This document shows positions 1,484 to 42,765 of a stretch of 64,000 nucleotides of DNA, one piece after another; the stretch's first letter is position 1, and the number at the start of each line of letters is the position of its first letter. The notes beneath the pieces were generated by a model, which was not told the DNA's origin, searched no databases, and saw only the letters and a program-made list of their open reading frames with translations. This DNA comes from Massalongia carnosa (Eukaryota). The stretch covers positions 2,480,001-2,544,000 of the forward strand of contig OZ287068.1 in NCBI GenBank assembly GCA_965645245.1, in the 5' to 3' direction. The translations under genes were made by a program, and so were the position numbers.

Positions 1484-3535
1484 ATGTCTCGACAATCTGG
1501 ACATTCTGGCGGTCGACCGAAAAATGCATTGGTAGATGAGAATTTCGTTGATGTCATCATTGAAGGCATGAAATACCCTCAGCATCGTTGTACGCATTGC
1601 GGATATCAGTCTGCCAAAGTTGCTACCAGGGGTCAGCAGCATTTGCAGACATGCAATGCCTTTCAAGAAGTGCAAGAAAGAAGACAGCAAGAGACGTCTT
1701 CTAGAAGCAGCAAATCTTTGATTCAATTGCCCATCACCTCTTTGATTCGTCCCTTAAATCAAGCCCAAGTTGCGCATGCTCATCGCGCTGCTGCAATGTC
1801 CGTCTTTATGACCAATCTTCCGTTTAACCACTTCGAAAATCCCTATGTGATTGCTCATCATCAAGCACTGCATCCTGGATATAAACCTCCACATCATAAG
1901 CTCGTTGGCGGGAAATTATTGGACGACGCCTATGAGACGGTTAAACTGAAAGTAAATCAGCAGTTAGATGCCTGCAGTTATCTCAACTTCTTTACCGACG
2001 AAACGGCCAACATTAAGAAGGAACGGGTTATTAATCTCTGTTGTCATGTCCCTTCATCAGCTACCTCTCGAGGGGGGGGCTTTCATTTAAAAGCAATGGC
2101 CGGCATCGCTGAGACGATGACTGCAGCTGTTCAAGCTGAGTGGATGATAAAAGGCTGTAGAGAAGCGACCAATAATCAGCTCTGGAGAGTCAATTGTATA
2201 GGAACAGATACTTGCTCTACTATGAAGGCCATGTGGTCTGAACTTCGAAAGTTTCCTGAGATGAGACACGTCTTTTTCGTTCCTTGCGACAGTCACGGTT
2301 TACAGCTTCTTTTGGGAGACATTTTGAAGCTTCCTTTTTTTGCAGACATCATGCAAAAAGCTCAGTCGATAGTGATAGCTTTTCGTGGATCGAATAAAGA
2401 ATTGGCCATTCTATGGAATTTTCAGATGAAGGTAAGTAGGAATGAAATTTCAATGCGGCATCAAAACGTCATTGCTAATTTATAACTTTCAAAGGCATAC
2501 AATCAACGTCAATCACTGATTCTCAACGTTTTGACCAGATGGGGTAAGACTGTAGGCCTTTTGAACTCGGTGCTAAAAAGCAAGCAGGCAATTTTGGATT
2601 ATTTTCAGCAAAATGCTCCGGGCATTGATCAGGGCAGAAGTCATCCTTTAGGAACATTCGTCAACGACTTCTCGTTTTGGAAAAAGCTGGCCATCGTACA
2701 GAAAATTCTTGATCCCATACATAAAGCACAATACATGTCCGAGGCCGAGGGGCATAAACTGTACGCGGTGACTGCCAATTGGAACAGGCTTCGATCTCAC
2801 CTATATACAATGGCCAAAGAGGATGAAGATTCTGAGATGGATTTGCATCACATTGCAGAGATAGTTTGGGAAGATCGATATCTCAGTCAAATAACTGAAC
2901 TTCATGTGGTAGCAGCTCTGTTGCTTCCTCAGAATCATAACATTCAGGTGATTGGAGTATCCACGTCGCAGGCATTTTTCTCTATCATGCATAGATTCTT
3001 TGCTAAATATCTGAACGTTGAAGAAGCAAAGTCGGCAATGAAGCAATGGCTTTCTTTTCGAAATCAAGAAGACGGTTTTTATCCTGCCTCCGAATGCTGG
3101 ACATATCAAACGGATTCGGACCTATTTTGGAACTTTTCCAGAAGCTTTGCTTTTGATCTCAGCAACATAGCTAGAAAGGTAATAATGCTGCCTGCTAATT
3201 CGGTGCTGGCAGAAAGAAATTGGTCGGTCATGAATTTGATCATGACCAAAAGTCGGAACTCTCTACATTCCATCAATGTCAATAAACTCATGTTTATTTA
3301 CATGAATGAGCGTACTCTTAATCGGCCAACAGATTTCAAAAGCAAGCTTCAGTTTGCTGGCATCGACATCAATGAGACGGATCTTTGTGAGATGGAGGAT
3401 AGACTACTGCAAGAAGAGATCTCTTTATCTGATACGTCCATGTCATCATCGAAAAGACCGGCGAGTCAAACGATATTTGGTGATGCGACGGAGAGCTTGG
3501 ATAAACACCTAGCTAGTAGAGTAGGAGATACATAA
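1484..3535 (+). CDS. hAT transposase, 2 exons (1484-2431, 2495-3535), ~662 aa, apparently intact
   Basis: BED-type finger CTHC...HLQTC, catalytic-like FTDET and GTD, CDSH (CxxH), TRW and C-terminal PANSVLAERNWS. A phase-0 intron GTAAGT...GCTAAT...AAG at 2432-2494 joins the two ORFs in frame. Confidence 0.9.
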
Positions 3536-6594: not shown

Positions 6595-7415
6595 GATCCC
6601 AAATTCCTCGACCTTTGTTTTATCCTAAGTGTAAGGCAGTCGTGTCAAATACACATATACCTACCTAGTCGAAGTTCTAGTGTTTCGAGCATCCGAAAAC
6701 CCCGTGGGGGGTGTTGACTTCTCCAGCGCTGCTTTTCGAGGGCTCGAAAACCTCGCACAACTAAGCCAACAGACACTTTGACCAGCAGCACTTCCTCGCC
6801 GAGACCCCACCGCTCGGCATAAAGGGGTAAAACAACGGATCTTTTTCAAGCGATTCCCTCTATTACGCTTGCGCGCACCTTATTTCTCCACCCTCTGTCT
6901 CGTCGCGCATTTCTGTTTTCACGGTTTTTCTTCTCTCGAACGGATCCATATACCCAGGTATGCATTGAAGGGAGGAACTTTTTGCATGAGTGATTCAGCT
7001 AGTTAGGATGAAAAGAAGATAATGAAATGCCGGGACCGAGTTAACTTGGTTATCAATAGGCAGGTAGGTAGGCAGGCAGGCACGCCGTGAATGACTAGTT
7101 AGAGGCGGAAGGTCGAGCGAGCGATGGCAACAGGGGTACTAAAAAAGAGCAGGAACAAAACGAAGAGGAGGAAGATGAAAAAGGGCACATATTAAATAGG
7201 TGGTATTTTTAGGTACTCTCCTCCTCACCATCATCGATCCGGATGGGGACTTCAGTACTAAAAAGTCTCATTCCCTTCCGCCCATCCACTTCCTTTAAAT
7301 TCAGCCGCATAAGGGAAAATGAGGTGTTTTCCACCTCCACCCGCCGGCAGGATACATGAAGCTGCTCGCTATATAGGAAGGGCTCTCGGCATAATCGAGC
7401 TCTAGCTGGTTAGCG

Positions 7416-7450
7416 GTTAGGGGAAGAGGGGAGGTGGGGAGGTGGGGGGG
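7416..7450 (+). repeat. G-run tract (potential G-quadruplex)
   Basis: GGGGAAGAGGGGAGGTGGGGAGGTGGGGGGG: four G-runs with short loops. A C-run tract lies at 7681-7770. Confidence 0.5.
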
Positions 7451-7782
7451 CAGTTAGAAAGGGGATTTTGAGAACGGGAATGGGAATATTAGCTTAGCAT
7501 GTTTGAGGCAAATTCCATAACTTAGCTAGTAATGCATCTAAAAAGAGATAAAGTATTGGTACTTGATCAGATCGTCAATGCACAGCTTCATGCTGTTTAT
7601 TTTTTTTTAAAAAAAGACCGTTAGATGACTCCGTAACGCATAGATTCATTCATTGCCAGGTTCGAAAACCTCATTATCTCCATCCCCCCCATTCCAACCC
7701 TCATCCTCCCCCCAAAACACCCCCCCTTCCCCATCCAGAACCAAAACCCCATAAATCCACCCACCCTAAGGCTCACTCACAA

Positions 7783-34250: not shown

Positions 34251-36556
34251 TTTGATTGTGGTATATGAGCCAGTGTTGCGAGCGTAGAGAAGTGCTGAAG
34301 TGGTCTAAGTTTGGAGTCCTTAGAATGGTCAGAAGCTGGGGACGAGCGGGTATATAATGAGACATTATCAAGTCTCTTCACATGCAAAGGCATGAAGCCT
34401 TAAGGGCAATGTAAGGTGAACACATGTAAAAGCTGGGATGGAAGGATAAAACGCCTTCAAATCAACACTCTGTGGCTTTGACGTATGACGCACCGACCGG
34501 TTGTGGCGGTAGCAGAGAGCTTTTAGGTGTTTTGATCATGTCTTAATTGGCTTAGATCCTAAGCTTCTAGAGCTAGAACGTTATGGGGTTTGGTGCTAAC
34601 CCCTTCTTACTCAATTCCATCGGAACCGAATGGTCTCATACATAGCTTCTGGATTGTGGTTTCCAGTCTATCTTCTATCTTCCTATTGAGAACTGTTTTC
34701 TTCTGCTCACAAATGCTCGTTTTTTTATTACTGTATGGTTACATCTGCAGGGCAGAGCCAGATTACGGTACTCCATACCTCACTTTGTACTACTTAGTAA
34801 TGTTACGCAAACCTCCCTCAAGGTAATTAGCCAATAATTGAAGCAGTATTCAGCACGATTTGCTATTAGAAATGGAACAATAATCCTGCATTAGGCAACC
34901 ACTGCAGCGCAAAACATTCTCACGGAGGCCGAAGAAGACAATCTTCTCAGCTTTTCCGTTGCAACAAGCCCGCTTCGTGAGACCTTTTCAGAGTACTCAG
35001 TATTGGCTAAGTACTCATGGAATCTGTATATACATTTCGTGATGCCGCTCCCCGGCCGTCAGGTTCACAATTTCAACGTCAAACCCAATAAACACCCATA
35101 CGCTGCCACGGATAATGCAGTTAGTACAACGACGACATTGCCACTCGTTCTGAATCTCTTCTGGCTCAGCCCGTCCTCTCCAATCTCAGAAAAAAACTGT
35201 TTATTTCCTTGCTGCCTTCGAAGTAGACTGGTAAGGAGGATTCCAGTACCGTAAAGGGCAAACAGGGCCCCAATGCTATAGAACTCGGAGGTGAAGATTT
35301 TCAGGATTACCTAATAACAACATGCGTATTAATAGACTGAATTCTTAACTTCCTTTCCCTTTGTTTTTCGCATCGCTCGTGAATGAGTGAACCCTCATGA
35401 CAAGGCGACCAATCTGTACTTCAGTGGGTGGAATTTACCAGAGCAAAAGAGAACTGTCCAAGAGCTGTTCGAATGTAGGCACCTTCGAAGGTCCTTTGTG
35501 CAGCTCGGATCTCGACCAGCTCGTTAGTGGTTAGTATCACTGACCGAGCTCTATGGTCGCGAAGGTGATATCTGTCCTGAGGGTGGGGCTACGTAAGGTG
35601 AGCAAAGTCTTTCGCGAACGATGAGATTGGTGGATGAAGATATTAGTACCTCAAACATGACATGTAACGATATATGGAGCTTTTCTACGATTCCAATACT
35701 GGCAAATGAGACAACCTATAGACCACGTCTATACAAATCTTGGTACAGATTGGAGACATTGAAAAAAAGTCAAAATAAACCCCACTAAGGGACCGAAGCG
35801 AAGGATCATGCAAGGTAGGGTACGTAGGGCCGGAAAATAGTTCTCGCGTGCAAATGCCAAAAACATTCTTGAAACCAATTTACGAAGTTTAACGAAGAAT
35901 GGAGATCTCTAATGCGAGAAAGCCGTTAGAAAACTAGAAAGCATTATGATCCCTATTCTCTCGTTTTCTAAAAGTCCCCAAACGCTAAGATTTTATAAAG
36001 GCAAATAAAGCTGAGTGATGAACCTTACATGGACTTGAGAATGATTTAGGGGACCTAGTACGAGCCTCCCGGACGGGGGGCATTAGATTCTGCTATATGT
36101 TAATAGCTCTGAAAAGAACGCCATGGAGTACGATAACATACACCTTCTCGGCATTCTAGAGGGGAACCTGCTTCTAGAGGTTAAGCGGCAATGTTGACTC
36201 GAAAACTTTAGCTAGAGTAGTTATAATCGAAGTCTTGAAGATAGACACAAACCTTGAGAGTTCGCATGTTTCGGATACGATGAAAAGGGTACAAGAGAAA
36301 AATTTCCGACTAATTAACCAGTCCATTATGGGTAGCAATTGTAAGTGAATGCAGCTGATGTATTTCATTAGAGTAAGTCTATTTTTCGGCATCAGGGCGG
36401 TTAGGATAGGACTTCTTGCTTTATTGGGCTCAGCTGACAAAGCATTTTTAATAAGATGAGATGGTTCTATGTCACGTGAGGCCCCTGAGTCAAAGTAAAT
36501 TAAGAATCACCCTCTGAAAATTCTTTCCTCATCCACTTCTTCTCACTCGGCCTCAT

Positions 36557-36695
36557 CCATCTCACTGACTCGTCGTCGACCCCACGTTGTCTCGGTGCCC
36601 CTACCTCGCTGTCAGTGCTTGCTGCTTTTCCCATCTCACTGACTCGTCGTCGACCTCACGTTGTCCTCGGTGCCCCTACCTCGCTGTCGGTGCTT
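36557..36695 (+). repeat. Two ~65-bp direct repeats (period 74) in the element's 5' leader
   Basis: CCATCTCACTGACTCGTCGTCGACC...CTCGGTGCCCCTACCTCGCTGTC(A/G)GTGCTT at 36557-36620 and 36631-36695; 3 differences. Confidence 0.95.
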
Positions 36696-36702
36696 TTTCC
36701 CA

Positions 36703-37716
36703 ATGACGAACACCCGTTCCCAAAGCACCCCGATGGACGACATAGTCCCCGACTCCCAGGAGATTGTCGGATTGACGCAGGCCCAGTCCAATCAAATCTT
36801 CGCCCTACAAAAGAAGAAAGCCGAGGCAGAAGCGAAGGCGGCCGAGGCTGAGGCCAGAATTGCCGAGTCCAAGGCATTGGTCGCCGAGAAGGAGGTGGAA
36901 AAAATGCAGCTAGAAATCGACTGCATGCGCCGAGAATCTGACGCCCGAATAGCGGCCGTCATTCCTGCTGGCAAGCCGAGTCGTGTCGTCGGCGATGACG
37001 ACGAGGACCTAGGTGAGATCCCTCTCGAAGTAAGAAGTATAGCACCCCGTTTCGCGGGCCTACCACAGGACGAGATCATCAAGATCTTTTCAAATAAATT
37101 CAAAGCCATCAACCTCTCCCGCCTCCGACACATGCACGGCATGCAATACGAGTCCTACAAGGATCAGGACCGCATCGGCATCGAAGACGGCGCCTTGAGG
37201 TTGAGAAAGGCATCCGGGACCTACAAAGATTTCGGAAAGACAGTTCATGACGTCTGGACCGAGAGCTTCATCAACTACACCTCGATCATGGTCAGTCTTT
37301 TCGGGAAATCGAGTCAACAGCTTCACGCCACCATGTCGGCATTCCACGGAAAAATCCTCACGCTGGCCAAGGTGTACGAGTGGCAGGAAGCAGTCCTCCC
37401 CCTCGCCATCGAAACCCACACTCACATCATCGCGTCTCAGCCATCCGACGCATCCCAATGGAAAATGCCCGACGAATTCCAAGCTCGATTCTGCACCCCC
37501 CTCACAGTCCTACGCCGTCGCCGCTCACGATCCCCGCCGTCCCGGCGACCGACCCCGAGAGGAGACAGGGCCGATAGGGCCGAGAAGGCAGCGGGGGAAA
37601 TCTGCGACAAGTACAACAGCGGCACCTGCACCTGGCCGTCGTGCTACCGACAGCACAAATGTAAATCGTGCGGCGCGGCTGGGCATGGCCAGAAGACATG
37701 CCCAACGAAGAAATAG
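36703..37716 (+). CDS. gag: ORF1/Gag-like protein of the YR retrotransposon
   Basis: First ATG at 36703. N-terminal coiled coil (KAEAEAKAAEAEARIAE), Arg/Ser tract, and CDKYNSGTCTWPSCYRQH + CKSCGAAGHGQKTC zinc fingers. Confidence 0.9.
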   Translation: MTNTRSQSTPMDDIVPDSQEIVGLTQAQSNQIFALQKKKAEAEAKAAEAEARIAESKALVAEKEVEKMQLEIDCMRRESDARIAAVIPAGKPSRVVGDDDEDLGEIPLEVRSIAPRFAGLPQDEIIKIFSNKFKAINLSRLRHMHGMQYESYKDQDRIGIEDGALRLRKASGTYKDFGKTVHDVWTESFINYTSIMVSLFGKSSQQLHATMSAFHGKILTLAKVYEWQEAVLPLAIETHTHIIASQPSDASQWKMPDEFQARFCTPLTVLRRRRSRSPPSRRPTPRGDRADRAEKAAGEICDKYNSGTCTWPSCYRQHKCKSCGAAGHGQKTCPTKK

Positions 37717-37761
37717 GGGGTTGGTGCAGGAGGCAGTAGAATAGCTTCAATAGCTGAATTC

Positions 37762-39465
37762 ATGACGTCCCATCCCTGCTTACCTGCACCAATCAGACCA
37801 AATACAATCCCTTCGTTTCAACTCGTAGACGCATCTCGTCAGCGTTTGAAAGACAGCCCATCTCCCCTCGTACCGTCCGCATGGGCAACTCTACTTCAAG
37901 AGTATCCGGGCCCCCTCCGAGTCCATCTGCCCATGATCCTTCGTTTCGGAGTACAAATCGGATACGAAGGCCCCACAGACATCCTTCGGATCGAAAAAAA
38001 TCTGACATCAGCGAATGAGGACCCGGAAACGATCGAGAATAAGCTCCAAGAGGACCTCAGGAAGGGCCGAGTCAGACGAATAGCCGCCCCGAGTCAGCCA
38101 TTTGTGGCCTCCCCCCTCGGCTTGGTCCCGAAACATGACGGAGGATGGCGACGCATTCATCATCTGTCTCATCCCAATCAAACATCAGTCAACGACAACA
38201 TTCCAGAAGAGGCATCCAAATTACAATACGCCAGACTCGACGACATTATTCAATTGATTCTGTCAGCGGGCAAAGGTGCTGTCATAGTGAAAAGAGACGT
38301 CAAAGACGCCTTTCGAAACGTTCCCGTCGCACCTCATCATCAATGGCTTCTGGGTTTCGGATGGAATGACGAATTCTACACCGAGACATGCCTTTCGTTC
38401 GGACTGTCGACGGCCCCGTTCATCTTCAATCTTTTTGCGGAAGGCTTTCATTGGATTTTGGAATCCTTTCTACAATGGAGATTACATCACTATCTAGACG
38501 ACTTCGTTGCAATTTTCCCATCCGAGACATCGTCAGAACGATTGCACCAAGAAACAAAAGCCTACAACATTCTCACCGACATTCTTGGCATCCCGAGAAA
38601 CGACTCAAAAGACGCCGAGGGAACGACAGCGACAGTCTTCGGACTCGAGGTCGACACCATCAACAGTCTTATTCGTCTGCCAGCGGACAAGCTGGAAAAA
38701 GCGAGAATCATCACTACAAAGGCACTAAACGAGACGACAATCAGCCTCGGCGACATGCAGTCAATAGCGGGCTTCCTAAGCTTCTGCGCACAGGCAGTCA
38801 AATTGGGCCGAGTCTTCTTACGATTATTCTGGAATTTTATAGCCTCATTTCCCTCGGGCAGTCATCGTCGGGTCAAAAGAAGAATTCCCACATGGGTCAG
38901 ACAGGATCTCATCTGGTGGAACAAACTTCTAGTGGACTTCAACGGTATTGTCTTCTTCGAGACGTCAACACGAGACACGATCAAGGTGCATACGGATGCA
39001 TGCCTCACGGGTCTCGGAGGCTATTTTCAACAAGACAACGAGCTCGTGAATCAAAAAAACGCATGTAGGGCCCGAGTCCTAGTCCTCAATCAGGAAGGAT
39101 CACCGAGCATAAACGTCCGAGAAGTCGAAGCTATCCTTCTAATCCTTCAGAAATGGGCGCCGACATGGCGACATCGACAGATCCTTGTCTTTACCGACAG
39201 CAACACAGCATACACAGGATTCACGAATCTAACCCTCAAGGGACCGGCCAACGCGCCTCTACGAGAAATACTGTCCATAGCTGCAAAGTGGGACATCGTA
39301 CTACGTTGTCAATGGATCAGTGGCACTTCCAATGGACTAGCAGATGCCCTGTCACGTTTTGATGATGAAAGATTGGCTAACTTTTGCCCTCATTGGCAGA
39401 ACCCATACAATTCGATGAACCTCCCTCCACCTACCTATCCTCCACACCAGGGTCAGCCCTGGTAA
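37762..39465 (+). CDS. pol: Reverse transcriptase-RNase H
   Basis: SPLGLVPK, WRRIHHLS, KRDVKDAFR, LSFGLSTAP and YLDDF. RNase H: TDAC, INVREVEA, FTDS, NGLADALSR. Confidence 0.96.
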   Translation: MTSHPCLPAPIRPNTIPSFQLVDASRQRLKDSPSPLVPSAWATLLQEYPGPLRVHLPMILRFGVQIGYEGPTDILRIEKNLTSANEDPETIENKLQEDLRKGRVRRIAAPSQPFVASPLGLVPKHDGGWRRIHHLSHPNQTSVNDNIPEEASKLQYARLDDIIQLILSAGKGAVIVKRDVKDAFRNVPVAPHHQWLLGFGWNDEFYTETCLSFGLSTAPFIFNLFAEGFHWILESFLQWRLHHYLDDFVAIFPSETSSERLHQETKAYNILTDILGIPRNDSKDAEGTTATVFGLEVDTINSLIRLPADKLEKARIITTKALNETTISLGDMQSIAGFLSFCAQAVKLGRVFLRLFWNFIASFPSGSHRRVKRRIPTWVRQDLIWWNKLLVDFNGIVFFETSTRDTIKVHTDACLTGLGGYFQQDNELVNQKNACRARVLVLNQEGSPSINVREVEAILLILQKWAPTWRHRQILVFTDSNTAYTGFTNLTLKGPANAPLREILSIAAKWDIVLRCQWISGTSNGLADALSRFDDERLANFCPHWQNPYNSMNLPPPTYPPHQGQPW

Positions 39466-40547
39466 AACGTCTCGTCTGGCACGGACACTCGGCGGACACG
39501 AGAAAAGGGTACGGGACGGCGATCGACTCATACGAGGCATTCTGCGCGACGACGGGACGCACGTCGTGGCCTGCAACAACCGAGTCCCTCGAGGAATGGC
39601 TAGCCGGTCGACTATACGGGGGCGGCACACCCAAGCAGGGAAAGATAAAACCAGAGACGGCAGCGAGCTACCTCGCCGGCCTCAGATCATACCATGTAGA
39701 CCGAGGATACGGCCTCACCCCATTCGAGGGGCCGAGACTTCAATTGATGCTGAAAGGGGGAAAAAGGATCTTTTCTCAGACAAAAAGAAGACGCCTACCC
39801 ATTTCAAAAGAATTACTGACAAAAATCACCAGTATTCCCGCTCATTCGGCCGAAGACCTCAACATCGACGCGACATTCAAAGTTGCATGGGCAGGGTTCC
39901 TCAGACTCGGGGAAATCACCTACACTGTCGCTGATCGTAAGAAGACATCTTTTCAGAGATTGAAACCTACACGAGGTGACATCTCATTCGCCGAGAACGA
40001 TCAATACGCGACATTACGTCTCAAAAGAAGCAAAACAGACACAAATCACTCAGGAGTTCAGATAGTGCTGGCAGCGACCAATGAGAGCACTTGCCCCGTG
40101 ACAGCACTACGGCGTCTTTTCAGAAATGATCCTCAGCCATCTACATCCCCGCTTTTTCGTCTCGGCACCGCATTCACCAGAGCCTCCGTCATAGCATCCC
40201 TGAAAAAGAGACTGATAGCCGTCGGCATCAACGACTCGGCATACTCGGGACACAGCTTCAGAAAAGGAGCAGCACAACACGCCGCCGACCACGGGATGCT
40301 GGATGAGAGTATTCAGAGACTCGGAAGATGGTCATCAAACGCGTTTCAGCTATACTTTCAGACGTCCCAGGCCTCACTATTCAATTTGAACCTCAGTTTT
40401 CAAAAAGGCATCCCTCTAGCAGTCCCACGTGCTGTCGTCGCCGAGACGAATCCTACAAACTCCTACCCCTACTCAATTGGGCATTCCATTGGGCGTACAG
40501 GTCAACCAGGGCATCGATCCGGAGCGCCGCCGGGCACCTCCATCTAG
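39384..40547 (+). CDS. Tyrosine recombinase (true start unknown; no early ATG)
   Basis: SAM-like N-terminal part (TRKGY...SYLAGLRSYH) and the catalytic set FLRLGE (R), KRSKTD (K), GHSFRKG (HxxR), LGRWSS (W) and QLY (Y). Confidence 0.95.
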   Translation: MPSLAEPIQFDEPPSTYLSSTPGSALVKRLVWHGHSADTRKGYGTAIDSYEAFCATTGRTSWPATTESLEEWLAGRLYGGGTPKQGKIKPETAASYLAGLRSYHVDRGYGLTPFEGPRLQLMLKGGKRIFSQTKRRRLPISKELLTKITSIPAHSAEDLNIDATFKVAWAGFLRLGEITYTVADRKKTSFQRLKPTRGDISFAENDQYATLRLKRSKTDTNHSGVQIVLAATNESTCPVTALRRLFRNDPQPSTSPLFRLGTAFTRASVIASLKKRLIAVGINDSAYSGHSFRKGAAQHAADHGMLDESIQRLGRWSSNAFQLYFQTSQASLFNLNLSFQKGIPLAVPRAVVAETNPTNSYPYSIGHSIGRTGQPGHRSGAPPGTSI

Positions 40548-40820
40548 ATCATCGCCGTCGGGCACTGCCGTCGGGCATCATCTATCGGATCGTTGAGCGT
40601 CAGCAGACGCCTCGGGCCTAGAAGATGAGGTTCTCACCTCAGCACCGACCCCGAGTCACGTGCCTAGGCCTGCCCGGGCTGACCTGTGTCGTTCCCATGC
40701 CCAATCAAATTCAAGCATTCAAATCAATTCATCCAATTAAAAGCCCCCCCAGCGCAAGCGAAGGTAACGGCACCGATAAGGGTCATAGAATTGTCTCAGT
40801 ACCTCAGACATGCCCAGCTA

Positions 40821-40953
40821 AGCCCCTTCGGGTTAGCCTTACAGAACGTTAAGCCCCTTCGGGTTAACAGACTGACTACGCAGCACATCTGTAGCAACCA
40901 CGTTAGTCAGCTGGGACGCTAATCCGAAGGAAATTGGCTAACCCGGAGGGGCT
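40821..40953. mobile_element. 133-bp MITE-like element with TA flanks
   Basis: TA|AGCCCCTTCGGGTTAGCC ... GGCTAACCCGGAGGGGCT|TA (17/18 TIR match). A second, inner copy of the motif sits at each end. Confidence 0.65.
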
Positions 40954-41142
40954 TAGACGGCTTCTAGAGCCCACGCACGTCTTAGGCAACGCAAGAAAGG
41001 TCTTTGCCGGTGGCAGATTTGTATGTCAGAAATTGCATCAGAAAAGGCAACTGGTGAGATGGAAATGGAGGCTTCTAGAATGACTGGTGAACAGGCATAA
41101 ATAGGAGCAGTTTTACTTTAATACGTAGTGGTAGAAAAGTCA

Positions 41143-42765
41143 CGAGATGCTTAGGGCCAGTCCCTGTGTAAATCTTTGCTAGTAAACAGCCATTTCCACT
41201 GCTCATCCATTTCCACTGCTCATCCGTAATGCAACTGCCAACAGCACATTAAACTATTTTCGGTTTAAATCGTATGACCTGTTATTGCTACTTACGTTGT
41301 ATAATTATCCTACTCGGTCTGATAAAGCATACCCTCACCCACACTTACCATTTGCCCTTGCCCTTGTCCTAACCCTTTGCCCTCTCTAAATCTCTCCTTC
41401 CACTTATGCTATAACTCATATTATATATTTTACTACTCGTCATCTCGATGGAGTTCGATCCTACTTCTTTGGATGCACGAAAGCAACATGTCATTGCCCT
41501 TCTATCCTCATCTCACCTCCTTCCTCCGCAAGAAAATGAGTTATTTTCGTCTTGAAAGAAGGCAAAGACTCATCTTCAAGACTATGCCTTCACTCAAGGC
41601 TTCGCGTTGGTCACAGAAACTCACGATAAGAAAAACCATTTAATCGTATTAGACTACACACGCCATCACAAAAGAGTTAGAAACACTAGAAAAGTAGAGG
41701 AGGAAGACCGGGTGCGAGCCAATACCAAAGTTTCGTTCAATGAGTGCCCTTATCGCCTCCGTCTCAAAAAAAAAACAAAGACAATGCATGGAGACTAATA
41801 GTTACTAACTCCGAGCACAACCATGAGATGGCCACTGATCCCTTTGCATTCAGAGAACATCATAGTAGGGACCCTGATCGAACAGATGCCCTAGATCAAG
41901 GAAAGAGTCTCCGTGCATCGTCAACCCAATATGGCCAAGCAGCGAGAATATTAGGAATCCAAGGACTCCGTCTGTCGAGGAGCGATTATTACAATCTCGC
42001 TCATTCGGAGGGAGCTCACACGCCTGACGAAGAGCTTCTTTTTGCCTTGGGCTCGTTGAAAGACAGGGACTTTCATGTACGGTGTAAGGAAAAATATATT
42101 GTTAAGAATAATGTGCGCGTGAGAGACGGGTGATAGAACACTTTTTTTTTTTGCAATGCGGAGCAAATTAGGCTGGCTCGACGTTTCGTGGGTGGGTTTC
42201 TATTAGAACGGATGCAACGTTCAATACTAATATATTGAACTTGCCTTTATCCGTTTTGGTTGGAATCACTCACACCGACCTTTCGTTTCCCGTCGCTTAT
42301 TGCTATATAACTTAACCCTATCTCAGGCAGCGCCGCCTCCATCTCTTTATAGTCTTAGCCAAAACGTGCGCGCCAGTCAAATTCTCCCTACTTCCTCTGC
42401 AACAACGCGAAGGTCTCGGGGTGTGGCGAAGAAATCAAAGGCTCAGTTGGAGTTGGGATCTCAGCAAAGAGTGAGAGATCAGTCAAACAGGCTAGGGCTC
42501 AAGCGAGAAAGGAAACGGCGATGAGAAAGATGGCTAAAACCATGAAGCCTAGAAAAGATGATGTATCGCAATTGTGTGACGAGTTTTTGGAGTTGAAGTC
42601 ATCGCAATCGGTAGATTTGTAGGCATTGAATACACTTAGTCAATAACAGCAACATTATTAATACGTAGTGTAACTGCTAGCTTGTACGCACCCTGGATGA
42701 GTAGTAAAATGGCTGTTTACTAGTAAAGATTTACACCAGGGGGAGGACTGTCCCTAAGCATCTCG
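41143..42765 (+). mobile_element. Mutator-like element (MULE), internally deleted/degenerate
   Basis: ~70-bp TIRs starting CGAGATGCTTAGGG. Perfect 9-bp TSD GAAAAGTCA (41134-41142, 42766-42774). Frameshifted FAR1-like CPYRL...HNH and MULE-domain DATFNTNILNLPLSVLVGIT remnants. Confidence 0.93.

Follow-up and report, generated by a model that had tools for sequence, protein, structure and literature searches.

The tyrosine recombinase (YR) of a Ngaro-like retrotransposon of Massalongia carnosa is probably made from a partly spliced RNA, in which a predicted intron of 2387 nucleotides (nt) is removed and 103 codons of gag are joined to the recombinase frame. The element lies on the forward strand of a 64,000-nt stretch of contig OZ287068.1 (GenBank assembly GCA_965645245.1, positions 2,480,001–2,544,000), which we analysed as a whole and refer to as the window; positions are counted from its first letter. 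A spliced, subgenomic YR message had been proposed in an initial annotation of the same letters. It is now supported by the conservation of the donor and acceptor sites and of their phases among relatives, by the open frame of the fused product and by a natural joined form, P0201, from a sister family. The parts of the element on which the argument turns are as follows.

36454..40790, + strand: Ngaro-like YR retrotransposon copy (A1, gag, pol, YR, B), delimited by contig ends and domain matches
36454..36702, + strand: A1 5' repeat and leader, including a 74–75-nt tandem duplication at 36557–36695
36703..37716, + strand: gag open reading frame (ORF) of 337 amino acids, from ATG 36703 to its end at the in-frame TAG 37714–37716
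36703..37012, + strand: coding part of the proposed exon 1, Gag 1–103 plus 1 nt, with a long predicted helix and an acidic linker
37010..37018, + strand: predicted 5' splice site TAG|GTGAGA, phase 1, from the sequence and the homologous GT in relatives
37013..39399, + strand: proposed intron of 2387 nt, comprising the gag core and all of pol
37717..39465, + strand: pol, encoding reverse transcriptase (RT) and RNase H in the gag frame, with stop TAA 39463–39465
39061..39070, + strand: secondary (cryptic) donor CAT|GTAGGG in RNase H, GT at 39065, from a contig of the public run X2
39377..39381, + strand: predicted branch point CTAAC, its TAA being the stop behind which the YR frame opens
39382..39399, + strand: pyrimidine-rich tract and 3' splice site CAG (39397–39399), 19 nt from the branch A
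39400..40547, + strand: YR exon, 382 codons of tyrosine recombinase, with stop 40545–40547
40548..40790, + strand: 3' untranslated region and B repeat; contig 16 of run X4 returns to 40490–40519 after a copy of A

The YR frame opens after the TAA at 39378–39380 and stays open from 39381 to its stop. The initial annotation had placed its first ATG about 120 codons in; it is codon 123 (nt 39747), past an N-terminal domain that is conserved in relatives, and by this reading of the frame YR apparently cannot start on its own. Where the frame opens, the predicted branch point GCTAAC (39376–39381) is followed by TTTTGCCCTCATTGG and then by CAG. The gag donor reads CCTAG|GTGAGATC (that is, CCTAG|GTGAGA), with G37012 followed by G37013 and T37014, and lies in phase 1. 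Exon 1 counts 310 nt from ATG 36703 (103 codons and 1 nt), in line with the roughly 103 residues of Gag N-terminus first estimated, and joining G37012 to A39400 and A39401 gives the codon GAA in the YR frame; the coordinates also bear out the intron length. The predicted intron has the GT..AG ends, consensus donor, branch point and pyrimidine tract expected of a spliceosomal intron, and among the 29 phase-1 GT sites in the 898 codons of gag and pol, 37013 is the best donor match by an ad hoc consensus score of our own.

The N-terminal part of Gag that the fusion would carry had been described as a coiled coil. An AlphaFold single-sequence model contains one long helix at residues 26–86 (block pLDDT, predicted local distance difference test, of 73–87 over residues 21–70), and the donor sits in a low-confidence acidic linker behind it. 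The long helix is thus borne out by the model, which does not establish coiled-coil formation; outside the N-terminal helix such single-sequence models are poor (mean pLDDT 47.6 for Gag and 43.1 for P0201).

Relatives of the element were sampled in proteins and in metagenomes. The protein collection held 339 homologues of the YR frame, and by ORF calling dozens of them start at the codon homologous to TTG 39384, which means that the stop just upstream of YR is conserved in position. An alignment of 36 YR sequences was used to retrieve 80 metagenome loci with 34–50% YR identity (L-numbers below), and the order gag, pol, YR was found in all 80 wherever the contig was long enough. Gag identity to the window is only 21–32% among the relatives. 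The N-terminal part of Gag is poorly conserved, and Gag homology begins right at the donor position.

The acceptor was counted in all loci with enough upstream sequence, as a motif lying between −21 and +6 nt relative to the position aligned to YR residue 7. CTRAY-N-YAG with its G at YR codon position 1 was found in 70 of 75 loci, and each of the other two phases occurred once. The branch-point variants were CTAAC (43), CTAAT (15), CTGAC (8) and CTGAT (4); the spacing from CTRAY to YAG ranges from 8 to 31 nt and is 19 nt in 35 loci, and YAG is CAG in 49 and TAG in 21. Both ADALSR of pol and LLWxGL of YR were recognisable in 35 junctions. Of these, 33 have YR at −1, and in 32 the distance from the start of ADALSR to the opening of the YR frame, behind TAA or TGA, is exactly 41 nt; the DNA consensus there is [GA]CT[AG]A[CT], about 13 nt, then CAYTGG[CT]AG.

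Alignment of these junctions shows the predicted acceptor to be a nucleotide signal and not a by-product of the pol peptide ..IANxCPHWQ, because codon choice, the switch of frame at the AG and two kinds of displacement all point the same way. The Ala/Thr codon of pol that lies within CTRAY is NCT in 35 of 35 junctions, where GCT makes up 26% of Ala codons overall. Conservation follows the pol frame (..IANxCPHWQ) as far as the AG and the YR frame ([EG]PLxFxxPP) from the AG onward; the pol tail past the AG is unconserved and of variable length, and in L057 the pol frame ends at HW*, on the YAG (TAG) itself. In L050 and L060, the Gln CAG has been lost and the His codon two upstream is now CAG, which keeps the phase and lies 6 nt nearer to the branch point. 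In L014/L007, and in L003/L004/L033 and their kin, CTAAC..YAG is found 60–390 nt beyond CPHW, in phase 1 and directly before the YR N-terminus; in these two lineages the predicted acceptor follows YR, not pol. The pol C-terminal motif of the L014/L007 lineage lacks both CTRAY and CAG. Between the end of pol and the branch point and acceptor, these two loci carry 200–390 nt of internally repetitive sequence (L014 1–275, L007 325–700).

A comparable degree of conservation was found at the donor. Counting the window, 26 of 30 loci have a phase-1 GT with a good hexamer where Gag G104 aligns, and the logo of these 26 donors is MAG|GTRAG (A at −2 in 19, G at −1 in 25, then G in 26, T in 26, R in 26, A in 24 and G in 26). 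The codon split by the donor is GGT in 25 and CGT in one, where GGT accounts for 23% of Gly codons, and the codon that follows varies (GAG 19, AAG 5, ACG 1, AGG 1). Donor-like phase-1 sites occurred at 29 of 36,878 other gag and pol codons. A scan of every gag and pol residue over the three phases had its only peak at Gag 104, phase 1, with 17 of 23 loci; the runner-up had 10 of 66. Among the misses, L068 has CAG|GTACTA at the aligned site and L077 has ATG|GTATGA 12 codons away, and the remaining two, L045 and L064, are decayed gag genes with stops.

Both sites are available in 22 loci, again with the window included, and delimit homologous introns of 2351–2691 nt. The length of these introns modulo 3 is 2 in 14 loci, 1 in seven and 0 in one, and across 68 loci YR stands at −1 relative to pol in 48, at +1 in 13 and at 0 in seven. 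The joined gag-N::YR frame is open through at least 300 YR codons in 15 of the 22, the rest being visibly decayed copies. Because the joined frame is open while intron length modulo 3 and the pol/YR relation vary, the reading relation that is conserved is that of gag to YR, not of pol to YR. The position and phase of donor, branch point and YAG are thus conserved in relatives (donor 26/30, acceptor 70/75, fused ORF open in 15), a point on which the initial annotation had left its proposal to depend. Judged from these alignments, what this element clade conserves at the nucleotide level is the predicted donor and the predicted acceptor.

A helical N-terminus precedes YR in two natural sequences, P0025 and P0201, the second of which surfaced in a full HMMER search with the first as query. 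P0201 is a single-member sequence from a 2222-nt ENA contig and belongs to a sister family. Its residues 1–61 comprise a long helix (2–44, pLDDT 75–90) and an acidic linker, ..TADEDDE, and YR begins at G62 (G62-LLLFNPP...). Compared with P0279, an ordinary ORF of the same family that starts MPPLAG.., identity begins at G62, which corresponds to G6, and 247 of 271 residues are identical. Its tblastn matches begin at nt 189 in L005, 1519 in L016, 2535 in L017 and 75 in L018. These are the acceptor G positions that had been found independently, so the homology of P0201 breaks precisely at the predicted 3' splice site. By its sequence, P0201 is a natural joined form from a relative, and its junction falls exactly where the acceptor is predicted. 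Instead of a messenger RNA (mRNA), it may represent a spliced message that was copied back into DNA and has since decayed.

P0025, from an 11-kb Logan contig, has a helical N-terminus (..DEDDIL|G) whose join to YR lies about 36 codons deeper in the recombinase, where the window reads AAAAG|GG. It looks like a second joined form that uses the same donor with another acceptor. Non-pol N-terminal extensions of about 95–165 residues before a complete YR were also seen in P0189 (KAF5365565.1, Collybiopsis confluens) and in P0215/P0270, which may be either additional joined forms or YR genes that stand alone. In tblastn searches against the 80 loci and the fetched proteins, the N-termini of P0025, P0201, P0215 and P0189 matched only themselves, and their identity with Gag exon 1 is consequently argued from architecture only, that is, from helix, acidic linker and junction. 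A processed gag-N::YR copy was found in none of the 80 metagenome loci.

Six public runs (X1–X6) contain the element, and joints were read from contigs of four of them (15 of the 45 joints listed). One contig of X2 joins 39064 to 39400 with GT..AG ends, at a depth of 1962 and with 29 letters on its shorter side. The GT it uses, at 39065, is the second-best in-phase donor of the window by our ad hoc score. We read this joint as cryptic splicing, or as a retro-copy of RNA so spliced, and as confirmation that the acceptor is functional. X4, in which a SMART cDNA-synthesis primer forms a loose contig end at 37232, may be a complementary DNA (cDNA) library.

Other routes to the recombinase have to be weighed against the gag-to-YR splice. 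Programmed −1 ribosomal frameshifting, or another form of recoding, in the 85-nt overlap of pol and YR would yield a Gag–Pol–YR polyprotein. The −1 relation of YR to pol, which the window shares with 48 of the 68 loci, suits this explanation, and a CCCTTTC heptamer placed 36 nt into the overlap is common to L023, L031, L049 and L078. However, a slippery heptamer is present in only 6 of 44 −1 overlaps and absent from the other 38, and the window has none; the initial annotation had already seen no X-XXY-YYZ site there, and none occurs in 39381–39465. YR stands at +1 or 0, with stops in between, in 20 of 68 loci, the pol frame of L057 stops directly on the YAG, and recoding leaves unexplained the synonymous constraint on CTRAY, the relocation of CTAAC..YAG together with YR and the conserved gag donor. 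We hold it to be very improbable indeed. A 44-nt intron from GT 39356 to AG 39399, which would connect YR to a full-length pol in the manner of P0001, an ascomycete gene model (..ADALSR|PLGIEPP..), shares its acceptor with the gag-to-YR splice, restores the frame (44 mod 3 = 2) and gives a product colinear with P0001, and L021, L053 and L054 have CG|GTAAYA at that place. Yet its GT needs the Arg codon CGT, and L001, L002, L016, L032, L049, L057 and L071 have CGA, CGG or CGC. The window donor, GTTTTG, is without a G at +5, the branch point would lie 24 nt from the donor, 44 nt is about as short as introns get, the support of the annotation model P0001 is unspecified, and the gag donor would again have no role. 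Such an intron seems very improbable for the window, and as a general mechanism it was rejected, its donor not being conserved. Two neighbouring candidates were discarded as well, a 49-nt intron from GT 39351 for its wrong phase and an 80-nt intron from GT 39320 that would delete the conserved ADALSR motif. The in-frame pol-YR ORF of P0064, considered as a mechanism, is read instead as a single copy with a deletion of about 35 nt.

YR might also be translated on its own, from a non-AUG codon such as TTG 39384, from an internal promoter or from a subgenomic transcript starting near 39380. ORF callers begin many relatives at the homologous TTG or GTG, and in 12 of 34 loci (33 relatives and the window) some Met lies upstream of the LLWxGL motif. 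The positions of these Met residues are not conserved, though, and the other 22 loci have no ATG between the upstream stop and LLWxGL. The residues upstream of the AG track the pol frame, not the YR frame, and P0201 has a different N-terminus in their place; no accumulation of molecule ends is listed near 39380, although contigs cannot show starts. An independent start is, to our judgement, highly implausible. The last alternative takes the X2 joint at face value and makes the 335-nt intron from 39065 to 39399 the main splice, with RNase H truncated and YR reached by readthrough of, or reinitiation after, a TAA at the junction. It can call on the only joint at this acceptor among the joints listed, on the rank of its donor and on its length (335 mod 3 = 2). 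Against this, the junction codon is itself TAA, a GT at the aligned position is found in only 3 of 60 loci (window included), the catalytic core of RNase H would be destroyed, and the support consists of one contig with a short side in a run of unspecified type. It is the reading to which we give the smallest chance, hardly any.

Several observations weigh against the gag-to-YR splice or blunt the evidence for it. Many of the 80 loci are near copies of each other, so that counts drawn from them overstate independence. P0201 has a 6-residue deletion and a frameshifted tail; its N-terminus has no Gag match by homology in a comparison set that included no gag of the P0201 family, and both it and P0025 are single contigs of unspecified molecule type. 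A search with Gag 1–104 gave two matches, both ordinary Gags of the window's family, and no fusion. None of the six runs with the element is recorded as RNA, their library types being unspecified, and the joint 37012^39400 is not among the 15 of 45 joints listed. The only listed joint at the 39400 acceptor uses the donor at 39065 and produces an in-frame stop, T|AA. A contig of X4 runs unspliced from 37232 to 39469, across the acceptor; this is expected for genomic RNA, yet is no support for splicing. Finally, an intron of 2.4 kb is very long for a fungus.

Taken with these points, the gag-to-YR splice would operate as follows. One full-length RNA would be transcribed from the 5' repeat and serve as the message for Gag and, by readthrough of TAG 37714–37716, for a Gag–RT/RNase H protein. 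A fraction of this RNA would be spliced from G37012|GT to CAG|A39400, with loss of the gag core and all of pol. The resulting message of about 1.95 kb would hold a single ORF made up of the gag ATG, 103 Gag codons, the GAA junction codon and 382 YR codons. Because this ORF runs from the gag ATG into YR, the recombinase would borrow both its start codon and its N-terminal helix from gag, and the shared helix might bring the recombinase to Gag and the cDNA. One promoter would thereby give three products, Gag, Gag-Pol and Gag-N::YR. That splicing takes place in this host, and that it is partial, we infer.

The readthrough step concerns the one TAG that separates gag from pol, which share a frame. 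A single in-frame stop is present at 22 of the 24 gag/pol junctions examined, window included; L006 and L011 have pol at −1. In relatives this stop is most often preceded by AAA and followed by CAA, in the context AAA-TAG/TAA/TGA-CAA-TYN (L003, L008, L010, L012, L015, L026, L040, L053 and others), and the window has AAA-TAG-GGG-GTT (37705–37730). The AAA-stop-CAA context of the relatives resembles the readthrough signal of the tobamovirus type.

By its parts, 36454–40790 is a Ngaro-like YR retrotransposon with a gag-like ORF, RT/RNase H and a tyrosine recombinase. The 5' end at 36454 coincides with the start of contigs from four public runs, and behind the 3' end at 40790 loose contig ends with differing flanks begin. 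The two units of the leader duplication, upstream of the gag ATG, are 97% alike, and run X6 holds a variant of it with 17 nt and 1 nt left out. Gag has a zinc-knuckle-like C-terminus and is 99% identical to P0124, a group with 39 member sequences. In pol, RVT_1 is matched with E = 2e-12 and RT_RNaseH with E = 1.6e-4 (22.2 bits, below its cut-off of 24.8 bits). The Phage_integrase match of YR is weak (E = 0.005) and likewise below its cut-off, and R175, K218, H291, R294, W317 and Y325 of the recombinase fall in columns that are invariant or at least 90% conserved in the 36-sequence alignment. These residues presumably have the catalytic roles of the family (R..K..HxxR..[H/W]..Y).

Pfam finds no methyltransferase domain after RNase H, and pol ends 35 codons past the ADALSR motif. 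In the parts of PMC13465315 used here, a pol without methyltransferase separates Ngaro from DIRS1-like elements, and split direct repeats of the form A1 ... B1-A2-B2 define Ngaro-like ones. Such repeats are complete in L033 (A1 2916–3023, A2 7324–7431, B1 7173–7330, B2 7501–7658), and L008 has a like pattern of A1/A2 and B1/B2. In the window copy A2 and B2 were not found; the copy stops after the first B, and no second copy of the element occurs within the 64,000 nt. Contig 16 of X4 (290 nt) joins 40786 to 36454 and then returns to 40490–40519, and from it the window's element family seems to have a B-A-B arrangement; the contig comes either from a split direct repeat B1-A2-B2 or from a junction between tandem copies or in a circle.

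Some features of the surroundings and of the relatives were recorded on the way. Directly behind the element, 40791–40990 carries two copies of TAAGCCCCTTCGGGTTA and a 21-nt inverted repeat (40818–40838/40936–40956). Many differing internal joints and replacements of this stretch in X2 mark it as a variable repeat family abutting the 3' end of the element. Further on, inverted repeats at 41166–41195/42707–42736 and 41143–41163/42745–42765 bound a stretch of about 1.6 kb (41143–42765), probably a small DNA transposon, whose ends X2 contains in abundance. Several copies of one metagenome family (L036, L037, L033, L034, L052 and L056) are AT-rich and full of TAA and TAG, a decay that looks like repeat-induced point mutation. 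In L008, L027 and L061, the gag of a next copy follows within about 1 kb after YR, and such elements therefore often stand in head-to-tail arrays.

The order of genes in the window and the lack of a methyltransferase are those of fungal Ngaro elements (order DIRS; Muszewska et al., 2013, PMC3783388), at least as far as the consulted parts of that survey describe them. Their split repeats A1 ... B1-A2-B2 recur in relatives of the window's element, with the window copy lacking A2-B2. The same parts of the survey note the YR ORF only as in frame or frameshifted and give no route for its expression (Muszewska et al., 2013, PMC3783388). For the window's element, the conservation of a donor in gag and of an acceptor at YR indicates a spliced Gag-N::YR message. 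Dictyostelium DIRS-1 (PMC7192593) is also a YR retrotransposon; unlike the present element, it has inverted repeats and an internal complementary region. By the portion of that study seen here, it has three ORFs, its proteins work in trans, and splicing of introns inserted into the transcript precedes reverse transcription; the splicing concerns an engineered marker intron and not a native YR message. Our literature search, within the portions of the sources it reached, returned no account of Ngaro or DIRS elements expressing YR through a native splice, though Goodwin and Poulter (2004) may contain an earlier mention. Gag-to-YR splicing thus seems not to have been described so far for this class of element; partial splicing itself is known in retroviruses and Ty1/copia.

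How YR is expressed in the DIRS order has so far been left open: its ORF often overlaps pol, out of frame and without a start codon. If the gag-to-YR splice is real, it answers this question for a large fungal clade and makes sense of an oddity, the conserved stop where the YR frame begins, which would be the branch point. It would also give annotators a rule for predicting the real YR protein, and the fusion to the Gag N-terminus points to a means, open to testing, by which the recombinase could reach the cDNA. A wider generalisation is possible, but we doubt it: throughout this fungal Ngaro clade, YR might be made only as a Gag-N::YR fusion across an intron of about 2.4 kb, with the helix bringing YR into Gag particles with the cDNA, and spliced messages might sometimes be copied back into DNA (P0201, P0025, perhaps P0215 and P0189) to become stand-alone helix-YR genes. 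Were this so, YR-only, Crypton-like elements, or recombinases captured by a host, might have arisen from retrotransposons by way of such genes.

Among retrotransposons without an envelope gene, Ty1/copia elements of Arabidopsis (PMC5580714) and barley (BARE, PMC3735527) produce spliced subgenomic gag RNAs and, according to the parts of these reports consulted, likewise use partial splicing to set a protein ratio. Their splicing removes pol and raises the output of Gag; in the window's element the gag core would be removed as well as pol, and what is gained would be a start codon for the recombinase.

If the gag-to-YR splice holds, retroviral logic, with its unspliced genome and spliced subgenomic message, arose here without an envelope gene or a DDE integrase. 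Retroviruses express env and accessory genes from singly spliced subgenomic RNA, and their unspliced RNA is both the genome and the gag-pol message. As for env, the proposed scheme has one promoter and partial splicing that starts at a donor close to the 5' end and skips gag and pol, with an acceptor at the end of pol that overlaps its coding sequence. It differs from env in that the donor lies inside the gag coding sequence, which leads to a fusion with the Gag N-terminus, and in that the downstream gene encodes the integration enzyme and not an envelope; the integrase of retroviruses, by contrast, is part of Pol.

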